NCBI RefSeq assembly: GCF_003334785.1
Contig: NZ_QOWV01000012.1
DNA length: 64,000 nt
Direction: 5' to 3' (one strand)
From: Escherichia coli
GTDB lineage: Bacteria; Pseudomonadota; Gammaproteobacteria; Enterobacterales; Enterobacteriaceae
Shown: piece after piece, positions 8,387-16,108 of the stretch
How the letters are laid out: each line of letters starts with the position of its first letter
How positions within the stretch are numbered: position 1 is the first letter of the stretch
The notes under the pieces: model-generated
The model's database searches: none
Told to the model about the DNA's origin: nothing
Seen by the model: only the letters and a program-made list of their open reading frames with translations
Translations under genes and position numbers: made by a program

Positions 8387-8605
8387 CTAAACCATAGAGA
8401 TGATTTTTATGATCCAGTCTTTCTCTTGTTGAGATAGTTCCAGTTTGCTCACTCGTGTTAAGAAGGTATTGATCACCTGAACATCCGAATTGGTGAGCCT
8501 ATTTAATAGAGCGGGTGGTATACCTTTACTAACAATCGCTTTGCGGTGACTTTCGTAGTTTTTATTACTCATTGTTGATCCTAAAAAATCATTGTATGGC
8601 GGCAT
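8387..8605 (-). CDS. hypothetical protein (72 aa); possibly C-terminal part of a frameshifted gene
   Basis: ORF in track directly downstream of the 8629..8871 ORF on the same strand, different frame. Confidence 0.3.
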   Translation of the reverse strand: MPPYNDFLGSTMSNKNYESHRKAIVSKGIPPALLNRLTNSDVQVINTFLTRVSKLELSQQEKDWIIKIISMV

Positions 8606-8628
8606 TGATCGTTTCCAGCAACCTTTAC

Positions 8629-8871
8629 TTACTCACTTCGAACTGCATCCTCGTAGACTGTTCCACTACAATAATCGAAAAGGCGCGGATGTCCATTCAG
8701 GTATCCCGCTAATACGTATAGCAATAACAATGGCTTATGCGGCGCGCGCTGTTCACCCTTGTGCCAGATTTTTATATTGGCAATTGCCTGCTGTAGCGAT
8801 TTACTGGAAGCTATTGATATCCCTAGCAGTGAAATAATTGCGATCATGCTCGCAAATTTTCTGCTGTTCAA
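8629..8871 (-). CDS. hypothetical protein (80 aa) with RAPHKPLLLLYVLAGYLNGHPRLFDY motif; possibly N-terminal part of a frameshifted gene
   Basis: ORF in track, divergent from the HNH gene; followed 24 bp downstream by a second ORF in another frame. Confidence 0.3.
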   Translation of the reverse strand: MNSRKFASMIAIISLLGISIASSKSLQQAIANIKIWHKGEQRAPHKPLLLLYVLAGYLNGHPRLFDYCSGTVYEDAVRSE

Positions 8872-8950
8872 GCCTGCAAGTGAAGATATATTACCTTGAT
8901 CTCATTTGTTTTTTTGCTGCCTGTTCTGAGAACGTATAAGGACATTCTCC

Positions 8951-9601
8951 ATGAATAAACTCCCTGATCATCTTCCGCGGCGGTATATCATCGAAGCTAT
9001 CCATTTATGGGATGCGGGAGAAACTCATCAGTTCCAGCCTGCGCGGTTGTATGAGATTGAATATCATGGCCGACGTTACCCCTCGAAGGCGATTGCTGGC
9101 ATCGCAGCGACATTGATGACGGGGACGCAATTTACCCCTGCGGATTTCACCGGCGGAATAAAATCTAAATGTGTCAAGCTACTCATAGAGCAGGGATTTC
9201 ATATTCATCTGGATAAAGCCGCTGCGGCTCCCATAGCCGACGTTCTGTTCCCGGATGAGTTGCCGTCGCAGGAGACATACCTTGAAGGTGCGGCGATAAA
9301 GGTGACAGTAAACCGCTATGAACGCGATAAAAAGGCCCGAGATAAAGCGGTCGAACATCATGGATGCCAGTGCAACGTATGCGGTGTTGATCTGGTGAAG
9401 ATCTATGGTGATATCGCTGAAGGCTTTATCCATGTGCATCACCTGGTGCCGCTGTCAGCCATTAAAGAGGATTACCAGCTGGATCCAGTTAATGATTTGC
9501 TGCCTGTGTACCCTAATTGCCATGCGATGTTGCACCGACGCAAACCACCGTTTACGCCGGAGCAGTTAAAAGCGCTGATGGATGCGAATAAATCAAATTA
9601 A
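8951..9601 (+). CDS. HNH endonuclease with an extra N-terminal domain (type IV restriction-like)
   Basis: C-terminal HHGCQCNVCG...FIHVHHLVPLS...NDLLPVYPNCHAMLHRR is a canonical HNH (C-x2-C, HH, N, C-x2-H) motif; about 120 aa of unrelated N-terminal sequence; AAGGA Shine-Dalgarno upstream of ATG. Confidence 0.7.
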   Translation: MNKLPDHLPRRYIIEAIHLWDAGETHQFQPARLYEIEYHGRRYPSKAIAGIAATLMTGTQFTPADFTGGIKSKCVKLLIEQGFHIHLDKAAAAPIADVLFPDELPSQETYLEGAAIKVTVNRYERDKKARDKAVEHHGCQCNVCGVDLVKIYGDIAEGFIHVHHLVPLSAIKEDYQLDPVNDLLPVYPNCHAMLHRRKPPFTPEQLKALMDANKSN

Positions 9602-9608
9602 TGAACGC

Positions 9609-10589
9609 TCACCTTTCGCGCCAAAACTGCAAAATTGCTTCTACAAACTTGTCAGAAATAATCCCCCGACGGGCTGCCGTGCTGAAATGACTGCTTCGCA
9701 GTGCCGTCGTCCAGTTCTCCGGTGACCGGTACGCTGAACCGTAATATCCCGTGCTTAAATCGTCCGGGTCTTCATCAGGCGCGTTCGTCAGTCCTCTTTC
9801 ACCTTGTTGCTGGAAGTCGACGAAAATAATATTGGCTAAAACATTATTTTGATAATTGCCATAAATAACTTCATACGCATGAGGGAAATTTTCTTTCCAG
9901 TACCAGGTGGTATCGCCGCAAAACCACGGTGCGTCAGTAATATTATTAAGCTGAGAATGGTATTGTTTTAGATCCCTACGAAAGGCTTCAACCATATGAT
10001 TAAAGTGTTGAGGGTGTGACGCGTAGTCACTGGTCATTAAGTCAAATTCGCCTTGCATCCAGCATACGCCGAGGAATTTGTTATGCGGATTTTTTGCCAG
10101 TGCGGCTCGCGTTCTGCTGACTAAATCCTGGTATAGCGGAGTATCCGTTCCCCAACGACAAGCATCATGGCTGGCTCCGTGCCGTTCTGAATATGTCCCT
10201 TCGCTGCCCGCGGTAAAAGCCGATCCGCCACGGCAACACGGAACGATGAGAACCCCTGCATTATCAGGAATAAAGGGCAGTAATTTCCGTGCTATATGCA
10301 GTGCCTGGCCAACGGTGCCGTACTGTGTTTGATGATTCGTTGCCAGAGGATGGTGATAACCCTGCATATCCTGAACATCGTGTGGGCAGTGAGTCAGTGG
10401 AATCATGTCGTTAAAGTGACATGGCGGGCCTCCGGGATGCGTATGCGCAAATCTCGCTAATTGTTTGATTCTGGGATGAGGCGCATCTTCCCTGTCCGGT
10501 AATGGCAGTCCTTCGCCATACGCCATGGCATTAGACTGACCAGCAATGGTAAGAATATAGTAATAATCGGGCGATATTATTGCGTTCAT
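9609..10589 (-). CDS. nanS: 9-O-acetyl-N-acetylneuraminate esterase NanS
   Basis: MNAIISPDYYYILTIAGQSNAMAYGEG... matches NanS (YjhS); start at the internal Met giving 326 aa; synteny with nanM and nanC. Confidence 0.85.
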   Translation of the reverse strand: MNAIISPDYYYILTIAGQSNAMAYGEGLPLPDREDAPHPRIKQLARFAHTHPGGPPCHFNDMIPLTHCPHDVQDMQGYHHPLATNHQTQYGTVGQALHIARKLLPFIPDNAGVLIVPCCRGGSAFTAGSEGTYSERHGASHDACRWGTDTPLYQDLVSRTRAALAKNPHNKFLGVCWMQGEFDLMTSDYASHPQHFNHMVEAFRRDLKQYHSQLNNITDAPWFCGDTTWYWKENFPHAYEVIYGNYQNNVLANIIFVDFQQQGERGLTNAPDEDPDDLSTGYYGSAYRSPENWTTALRSSHFSTAARRGIISDKFVEAILQFWRER

Positions 10590-15628: not shown

Positions 15629-15675
15629 TTTAACTCATTGATAATAAAGTTAAAAAACAAATAAATACAAGACAA

Positions 15676-15989
15676 TTGGGGCCATTTTGACTCATAGAGG
15701 AAAGCATCGCGCACAAACTTTTTCAGTTTATTTGTTGGCTTAATATTCTATTGTTATCTTTATTTATAGATTTTTATATTGCATGAGGTGGTTTTTGGAG
15801 AGAAGAATGAGGAAGATGCGTCGAGCCACAGAAACGTTAGCTTTACATATAGCGGAGGTGATGTGAAATTAATTTACAAGAGAAATAATTTACATATCAA
15901 ACAGTTAGATGCTTTTTGTCGTTTTTTAATATTTTTATGCTTGAGAAAAAATACGTAACTTATTTATGATATGGACAGTTTGGCCCCAA
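15676..15989. promoter_or_regulatory. fimS: fimS invertible phase-variation switch (314 bp) bounded by 9-bp inverted repeats, captured in the fimA-ON orientation
   Basis: TTGGGGCCA at 15676-15684 and TGGCCCCAA at 15981-15989; promoter-like TTGAGA / TATGATA inside the element pointing toward fimA. Confidence 0.85.
15944..15971 (+). promoter_or_regulatory. fimA sigma70 promoter inside fimS (-35 TTGAGA, -10 TATGATA)
   Basis: Hexamers read directly from sequence, about 18 bp apart, immediately inside the right inverted repeat and oriented toward fimA. Confidence 0.55.
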
Positions 15990-16108
15990 ATGTTTCATCT
16001 TTTAGGGGAAAACTGTGCAGTGTTGGCAGTCAAACTCGTTGACAAAACAAAGTGTACAGAACGACTGCCCATGTCGATTTAGAAATAGTTTTTTTAAAGG
16101 AAAGCAGC

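Follow-up and report, generated by a model that had tools for sequence, protein, structure and literature searches.

The gene investigated here lies in a 64,000-nt stretch of Escherichia coli DNA (NCBI RefSeq assembly GCF_003334785.1, contig NZ_QOWV01000012.1), the whole of which is referred to as the window. It occupies positions 8951 to 9601 on the plus strand and specifies a protein of 216 amino acids in which an N-terminal domain, a linker and a C-terminal HNH nuclease module follow each other (henceforth the head-HNH protein). The open reading frame (ORF) and its distance of 7 bp from the stop codon of nanS had been noted in a preliminary description of the window, and both are borne out by the sequence. 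The gene and the parts of its product are listed below by window position, with residue numbers referring to the protein.

8938 to 8942, plus strand: AAGGA, read from the sequence as a Shine-Dalgarno motif, 8 nt upstream of the ATG at 8951.
8951 to 9601, plus strand: head-HNH gene (ScoMcrA_N head, linker and HNH nuclease), a complete ORF starting with ATG, 216 amino acids plus stop codon.
8957 to 9214, plus strand: residues 3-88, N-terminal head domain of the ScoMcrA type (Pfam PF26345), with elements in the order alpha-beta-beta-alpha-alpha-beta.
9215 to 9280, plus strand: residues 89-110, linker with little conservation and low prediction confidence; its columns in alignment A1 vary and contain gaps.
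9281 to 9598, plus strand: residues 111-216, McrA-type HNH (beta-beta-alpha-Me) module, with Pfam HNH at residues 141-197 and a match to EcoKMcrA (6ghc).
9509 to 9511, plus strand: codon 187, TAC (Tyr) at the third structural-zinc Cys; TGC in other alleles, the single-nucleotide polymorphism being at 9510.

The ORF, whose TAA stop codon spans 9599-9601, is a real gene under selection, considering that RefSeq holds an identical protein (WP_001037966.1, annotated ‘HNH endonuclease’) which is present on at least 1000 contigs, that the protein has 1054 database homologues, and that the ratio of nonsynonymous to synonymous substitution rates (dN/dS) between E. coli alleles is 0.05-0.20, which indicates purifying selection.

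By sequence and by fold, the N-terminal domain is a homologue of the head domain of ScoMcrA, so that the part of the protein which the preliminary description had been unable to place is now assigned, residues 3-88 representing PF26345 (ScoMcrA_N) and residues 89-110 a linker. A single-sequence search of PDB chains matched residues 29-92 of ScoMcrA (5zmm_A; E=1e-3), and a profile derived from 57 diverse copies of the head domain matched residues 3-93 of the same chain (E=3.6e-9), this being its sole match. The fold of the domain was found to be the same as that of the crystallographic ScoMcrA head, and PF26345 is precomputed on nearly all homologues. The Pfam profile search performed in the current work reported only HNH (residues 141-197), because the release employed is older and does not contain PF26345. 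The linker is predicted with low confidence, the predicted local distance difference test (pLDDT) values lying at 43-58 for the blocks that cover residues 91-120 and dropping under 50 at residues 92-100. An assignment to the SBD domain, based on a likeness of the segment RRYPSKAIAG to the ScoMcrA sulfur pocket (Y164-P165...A168), was rejected, since the alignment falls in ScoMcrA residues 3-93 and not in 91-260, and since the SBD-HNH model NF045808 scores only 17 bits.

In the paper on the ScoMcrA structure, the head domain is described as small, of unknown function and flexibly attached, with the other three domains forming the dimer contacts, and a literature search retrieved no functional work on the head domain later than that paper. 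Across the head family the conserved polar positions are H26, S31, D35, Y43, K46, D65, C74, K/R76 and K88, of which H26, S31, D35, Y43, K46 and C74 (family consensus) make up the polar cluster named for a putative reader role. The enterobacterial clade that includes the window protein carries A31, E35 and S45 instead of the family consensus.

The distribution of the head domain was determined by scanning 1.84 billion representative proteins with residues 1-110 at a threshold of E <= 0.001, which yielded 590 clusters at 50% identity. Among 75 longer relatives of the head domain, the Pfam domains recovered were HNH (37), HNH_2 (16), EVE (13) and NOV_C (7), followed by SAD_SRA, DUF3427, AAA_5, DUF7669 and nSTAND3 with three each, while three head-domain relatives are fusions to a McrB GTPase. 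A Foldseek search of the head domain against AFDB50 returned 325 matches at E <= 0.001, the UniProt labels of which include EVE, YDG, DUF3578/McrB-DNA-binding, DUF3427, DUF3883, NO VEIN, HNH and ‘ScoMcrA-like N-terminal head domain-containing’. Elsewhere the head domain is fused to HNH, PD-(D/E)xK-type and McrB modules, often together with EVE, SRA or DUF3427 readers, and, as judged from these recurrent fusion partners, it is a mobile module of modification-dependent (type IV) restriction enzymes, to which it could contribute an additional reader, a clamp that holds DNA in general, or a regulatory element. In 50,697 phage records no match extended over the head domain, the HNH part alone being matched in eight, and a search of 38,880 PHROG families gave no match to the head domain and weak HNH matches for residues 124-205.

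A wider family shares the HNH part of the protein. In many phyla, a module with the motifs EG...VNRYERDxxAR...PVCPNCHAMLH, 45-60% identical, was observed fused to N-terminal domains of 100-300 amino acids (loci L033-L101), almost none of which are named by Pfam (DUF3427 once and, weakly, EVE once). These N-terminal domains constitute a pool of candidate unrecognised sensor domains. A scan of genome contigs for partners of this HNH subtype recovered mostly loci that have just the HNH module in common with the window protein, and did not sharpen the functional inference.

Within the HNH module, the lead-in EG...VNRYERDxxAR is followed by CxxC, FIHVHH and D..PVCPNCHAMLH (family form), and the residues E112, G113, N121, E124, R125, R130, C141, C144, H163, H164, N189, C190, H191 and H195 are invariant. 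The four histidines H163, H164, H191 and H195, which are invariant in all 60 sequences of alignment A1, are equivalent in the alignment to H228, H229, H252 and H256 of EcoKMcrA. By this analogy, H164 is predicted to activate the nucleophile, and H163, H191 and H195 are predicted to be active-site metal ligands. The preliminary description had credited the protein with a complete HNH signature ending in C-x2-H. The catalytic histidines, all four of them, and the first CxxC are indeed present, but the second zinc knuckle reads Y187-P-N-C190 and the supposed C-x2-H is absent, the actual string being C190-H191-x3-H195. In the paper on EcoKMcrA the structural zinc is held by four cysteines in two CxxC motifs; the window protein keeps the first of these (C141, C144) and has Tyr at the leading position of the second.

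Position 187, which aligns with a Cys of the second CxxC of EcoKMcrA, is occupied by Cys in 104 of 107 homologues having the motif, in 58 of the 60 sequences of A1 and in all 16 relatives that share only the HNH module. Cys187 (TGC) is also found in the six other E. coli alleles, four of which were measured to be 94.8-98.5% identical to the window allele at the nucleotide level, and the latter differs from all six by L87, L111, Y187 and Q205 in place of Q, V, C and E, respectively. In TagI, changing either Cys of the corresponding first CxxC motif to Ala has been reported to drastically reduce activity, whereas natural CxxD and CxxH variants of the zinc site are tolerated in relatives, where the other residue of the second motif is affected. 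From the loss of a Cys in the structural zinc site we infer that the Tyr187 allele is probably weakened (hypomorphic) or inactive. It is at the same time the commonest full-length allele, being the version carried by about 667 of the 1239 genomes in which the gene is full-length; the exact 61-mer around codon 187 was recovered from at least about 670 genomes, a number that is a lower bound derived from ranked samples. The Tyr allele was also found in strain TW10722, sampled from the 95.7%-identity class.

The surroundings of the gene comprise the following features.

8665 to 8814, minus strand: 50-codon 5' remnant of an EcoWI-like phosphorothioate-dependent endonuclease (SBD-HNH), annotated as a pseudogene in the identical RefSeq locus.
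8834 to 8859, no strand assigned: conserved 26-nt block between the two divergent genes, containing the palindrome TTGCGATCATGCTCGCAA at 8838-8855.
8913 to 8924, plus strand: left copy of the 12-bp direct repeat TTTGCTGCCTGT, deletion junction in locus L002.
9496 to 9507, plus strand: right copy of TTTGCTGCCTGT, an exact repeat.
9601 to 9690, plus strand: 29-codon ORF (MNAHLSRQNCKIASTNLSEIIPRRAAVLK), the ATG of which overlaps the stop codon of the HNH gene (TAATG), antisense to the 3' end of nanS.
9609 to 10589, minus strand: nanS, intact, 326 amino acids, convergent neighbour with nine differences from K-12.

Rather than being simply the last cargo gene of the left-hand accessory island, as had originally been proposed, the head-HNH gene is, judging from sequence comparison, one half of an old divergent two-nuclease cassette beside nanS, the other half of which is the EcoWI-like nuclease gene and traces of which were detected in 4938 of 5426 E. 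coli genomes. In the window this partner is reduced to a stump that scores 61 bits with NF045808, as compared to 440 bits for the intact 290-aa gene in locus L005. The start codon of the stump (8812-8814, minus strand) reads ATA, while that of intact alleles (translation in L005) is ATG. The same divergent pair is present in the same orientation in E. coli, Klebsiella aerogenes, three Citrobacter species and one Enterobacter species, and in other E. coli both nuclease genes are located 4 kb apart inside an integrative conjugative element. The 26-nt block is the sole conserved intergenic stretch in E. coli, K. aerogenes, two Citrobacter species and one Enterobacter species, with the palindrome taking the cross-genus form TTGCGAT(C/G)ATGCTCGCAA. 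It is unique within the window and occurs in 15 of 104 fetched loci, all of them cassette loci; it has no exact match in L002, though the region is present there, and it was also scored as terminator-like on both strands. This pattern of conservation suggests that the block is probably a shared control element of the cassette, which may act as an operator or as an RNA hairpin.

Retention of the two genes was assessed in 5,426 complete E. coli genomes. The head-HNH gene is intact in 1239 of these (23%) and both genes are intact in 326, as compared to about 390 expected under independence, the number of genomes with an intact partner (~1700) being an estimate from sampled rows and not an exact count. 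An intact head-HNH gene accompanies a dead partner in about 900 genomes, and the reverse arrangement occurs in about 1400. Of the 11 species-level loci that gave a full-length match, seven lack an SBD gene within 6 kb, and stand-alone head-HNH genes, likewise with no SBD gene within 6 kb, were encountered in Pantoea, in Sulfurimonadaceae and next to Kiwa, among others. The two cassette genes are therefore kept or lost independently in E. coli, which implies that each nuclease works alone.

The neighbours of the cassette in other strains include McrBC-family genes, type II Zorya, AbiE, type I restriction-modification (R-M) and a cytosine methyltransferase, and across several genera they also include Kiwa and PLD-helicase. 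At the nanS site of individual strains (L002 1606-4967; L003 5478-8651; L004 and L006 2064-3399; L005 919-2058), a McrB/McrC-family pair, type II Zorya, DUF6088 with AbiEii, type I R-M and a cytosine methyltransferase were observed; the site beside nanS is a defence-gene hot spot. In the identical RefSeq locus no methyltransferase is coupled to the head-HNH gene, which has nanS to one side and the nuclease stump together with genes of the toxin-antitoxin and DUF kinds to the other. Nor is a methyltransferase listed beside the gene where it stands alone, in Pantoea, in Sulfurimonadaceae and near Kiwa. In K. aerogenes (L012 4260-4919), a third stand-alone nuclease gene, encoding Mrr_N + HNH (219 aa), adjoins the pair and a type I R-M system, so that three small HNH enzymes with different N-terminal domains stand in a row.

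In E. coli, at least three different deletion alleles of the head-HNH gene were distinguished. The first, present in roughly 1000 genomes or more, has lost 571 bp between the two TTTGCTGCCTGT copies, which takes out the promoter-proximal region and codons 1-182 and leaves a 3' remnant of 106 bp. The second consists of 3' remnants of 34-48 bp and is found in O157:H7 alongside an intact partner gene. In the third, that of K-12, codon 5 is joined to sequence just beyond the stop codon, so that the product is MNKLP plus 27 residues and corresponds to the annotated small protein YthB (NC_000913.3 4536597-4536695; L021 6598-6696). The statement that K-12 has different genes at this site was thus partly right, since K-12 retains decayed pieces of the cassette and the first five codons of the nuclease gene form the start of YthB. 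The 29-codon ORF of the window is homologous to residues 6-32 of K-12 YthB, and, as the K-12 deletion fuses MNKLP to this ORF, YthB looks like a decay by-product of the nuclease gene. YthB has been detected by chromosomal tagging and immunoblot. The homologous start of the head-HNH gene is translated in K-12 as YthB, an indirect sign that the promoter and ribosome-binding site of the head-HNH gene are active.

Between about 5030 and 18600 the window matches strain E2865 at 99.96% identity, and in that strain the head-HNH protein bears the accession WP_001037966.1. On the other side of the head-HNH gene, the nanS stop codon (complement) lies at 9609-9611, with 9602-9608 representing the 7-bp gap between the two convergent stops. 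In several genomes nanS is annotated by RefSeq as an ‘incomplete’ pseudogene (L001 10025-10639; L102 2873-3439). The nanS translation of E2865 (L001) is full-length and identical to that of the window. The pseudogene label looks like an annotation artefact and not a true truncation, one that likely derives from the overlapping YthB-like small ORF annotated there. Further along, the fimS phase switch (15672-15993, between fimE and fimA) has the opposite orientation to that in E2865, the flanks being 99.96% identical.

The reading that we prefer, and to which we attach roughly even confidence, is that the head-HNH protein is a single-chain, type IV-like (modification-dependent) defence nuclease. 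It rests on the homology of the head, the fusion census, the catalytic residues, the defence-island setting, purifying selection, the head domain having no counterpart in the phage records or PHROG families, the independence of the gene from its partner and the expression of its start region in K-12 as YthB. Considering the features of type IV enzymes, a nuclease is present, the domain joined to it has its homologue within a type IV enzyme and recurs with EVE, SRA, DUF3427 and McrB, and no cognate methyltransferase or immunity gene accompanies it. Whereas the domain identities, the conservation, the genomic setting and the allele states are observed, we infer nuclease activity, a role in defence and the sensing of DNA or of its modification by the head domain. 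In the mechanism envisaged, the head domain (residues 3-88) would select the target, most likely DNA carrying a modification or feature foreign to E. coli; a flexible linker of about 22 residues would join the head to the HNH module; and the McrA-type HNH would cut DNA nearby, probably after two chains have paired via their HNH domains, on the model of EcoKMcrA and TagI. Since no methyltransferase or immunity gene accompanies the nuclease, self DNA would be spared by target specificity. The earlier proposal of a candidate type IV or defence nuclease thus gains from the head homology, the architectures, the defence islands and the uncoupled state of the gene, while the added domain, now identified as a catalogued one, is DNA-reading only putatively. 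A stronger version, namely that the ScoMcrA-type head, with its own fold and its conserved polar cluster, reads a DNA modification or feature in a way not recognised before, and that the head-HNH protein is the minimal natural enzyme revealing its specificity and would form a new type IV class, is put forward tentatively and is less likely than not.

Several observations weigh against the preferred reading. The profile and structure search of the N-terminal part which had been suggested in the preliminary description returned the ScoMcrA head, and none of the known DNA readers resembled the domain significantly in structure; nor is it strongly basic (mean net charge +1, median isoelectric point 8). 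It often adjoins an established reader, and may therefore be an accessory module rather than a specificity module. The literature holds no experiment on any member with the head-HNH architecture, and a consensus sigma-70 scan of 8500-9800 detected no promoter upstream of the gene. Searches of PADLOC-DB 2.0 gave only weak partial matches, to mREase_IV (two models, E=1e-4 and 2.5e-4) and to IetA (E=2e-3), and membership of known defence families was on that account rejected. Finally, the window allele is devoid of one zinc ligand.

This last point leads to an explanation that falls only somewhat short of an even prospect and is compatible with an ancestral type IV-like function, namely that the window gene is a decaying relic in which C187Y breaks the zinc site, leaving the protein unstable or dead and the ORF open through recent spread of the allele. 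The substituted Cys is that of 104 of the 107 homologues and is invariant in wider relatives, the EcoKMcrA site employs four Cys, and Ala mutants in the first CxxC of TagI are drastically less active; moreover, the window allele stands alone among the sampled E. coli alleles at L87, L111, Y187 and Q205, in a locus with general signs of decay (the partner stump with its ATA start, at least three deletion alleles). Yet the Tyr allele is the commonest full-length form, with an intact ORF in at least about 670 genomes and on at least 1000 contigs, and CxxD and CxxH zinc sites are functional in relatives, though at the other motif position; the substitutions are too few for relaxed selection to be detected. 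A different account of the head, which we hold to be unlikely, takes it to be a sensor of phage proteins, nucleotide signals or DNA structures that frees a non-specific HNH activity, by which the infected cell is killed or arrested, the protein then being a signal-activated abortive-infection nuclease. It would suit a head of unassigned function that is not markedly basic and unlike known DNA readers, that is further found together with STAND-type NTPases and in one protein whose description mentions a ZorC EH domain, and it has in its favour that, next to EcoKMcrA and ScoMcrA, the nearest structural matches of the HNH module number among them Cap5, a ligand-activated CBASS effector. These Cap5 matches are, however, weak (E >= 0.1) and confined to the HNH core, the partners of the head are overwhelmingly readers of modified DNA or type IV effectors (EVE, SRA, DUF3427, McrB), and the ScoMcrA head belongs to an enzyme that acts directly on modified DNA.

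The occurrence of both head and SBD in the one chain of ScoMcrA, the divergent pair of constant orientation in E. coli, K. aerogenes, three Citrobacter species and one Enterobacter species, its presence within one integrative conjugative element in other E. coli and the conserved 26-nt palindromic block between the genes would all be expected if the two nucleases formed an obligate two-gene system, in essence a ScoMcrA split in two, which would make the window gene a functionless orphan. This is very unlikely, as EcoWI is active alone, in vitro and in vivo, as a homodimer, and obligate pairing was rejected on the basis of the co-occurrence counts in E. coli (326 genomes with both genes intact against ~390 expected, ~900 and ~1400 with one of them dead) and of the loci from other species, including those of Pantoea, Sulfurimonadaceae and the Kiwa neighbourhood, in which no SBD gene lies within 6 kb. 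Scarcely credible, in turn, is the reading that the protein plays no part in defence, whether as an HNH endonuclease of the homing or mobile-element kind or as a repair nuclease with a housekeeping task: HNH domains are common in homing endonucleases, and weak PHROG matches cover residues 124-205, but the phage records hold no full-length relative (the HNH part alone in eight of 50,697), the head matches none of the 38,880 PHROG families, and the gene is free-standing, has its own ribosome-binding site and lies in no intron or intein. A homing endonuclease in an intron or intein, which the preliminary description had itself named as a possible refutation, was accordingly rejected by the phage and PHROG searches, while a housekeeping function is at odds with the patchy occurrence of the gene, in 23% of E. 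coli, and with its having been deleted repeatedly.

Type IV restriction enzymes are phage-defence factors as well as laboratory tools for mapping DNA modifications, and earlier reader domains have each yielded such a tool, as exemplified by SRA, EVE, SBD with EcoWI-seq and the winged helix for N6-methyladenine (6mA). The head domain has been visible in the ScoMcrA crystal structure since 2018. Considering the generic RefSeq annotation of the protein and the existing Pfam entry for its domain, novelty is limited to the head-HNH architecture as a possible new reader class. Should the head be a new reader, a new type IV class would exist in about one quarter of E. coli genomes and in many phyla; should the protein be merely another weak, non-specific HNH nuclease, the finding would be an ordinary one. 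The E. coli protein provides the simplest context in which to find the target of the head domain, and the natural alleles, Cys187 as in WP_001037968.1 and Tyr187 as in the window, offer a ready pair with a complete and a damaged zinc site, respectively. The locus is, in addition, an example of defence-gene decay, an ancestral two-nuclease cassette having been worn down through at least three different deletions together with a substitution in the zinc site, with the leftover start in K-12 driving YthB.

Among known systems, the counterpart of the head is found in ScoMcrA (Sco4631, PDB 5ZMM) of Streptomyces coelicolor, a type IV endonuclease with the order head-SBD-SRA-HNH and a length of 561 amino acids as compared to 216 for the E. 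coli protein. The latter is devoid of the SBD (ScoMcrA residues 91-260) and of the SRA, the parts with which ScoMcrA reads phosphorothioate and 5-methylcytosine/5-hydroxymethylcytosine (5mC/5hmC). The ScoMcrA head itself deviates from the wider family, H26, S31, D35 and C74 being replaced by Y, A, F and gap/A/V, respectively. The closest solved HNH domain is that of EcoKMcrA (PDB 6GHC), a type IV enzyme of the NEco-HNH type from the K-12 prophage e14, with which the head-HNH protein shares the logic of a small N-terminal specificity domain preceding a C-terminal HNH, the same active-site histidines and the CxxC...CxxC layout. Their N-terminal domains are unrelated, no NEco domain being present and only residues 123-198 aligning (6ghc_A 199-269), and EcoKMcrA retains all four zinc Cys, unlike the window allele with Tyr at the third.

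The EcoWI group (SBD-HNH, NF045808), a member of which is the ancestral divergent neighbour, likewise consists of stand-alone HNH nucleases without a methyltransferase. The head-HNH protein differs from it in having no SBD, given that it scores 17.4 bits against the NF045808 cut-off of 180 with only linker and HNH aligned, and PF26340 (SBD) is never listed for its homologues; the HNH subtype also differs, being Pfam HNH in the head-HNH protein and HNH_2 in the SBD-HNH neighbour. In the SRA-HNH, EVE-HNH and DUF3427-HNH enzymes (the TagI, ScoA3IV and VcaM4I class), the readers flip or cage the modified base and have defined specificities, and the head domain has a different fold from theirs. The modular design is nevertheless the same, and in longer relatives the head is fused to these same readers.

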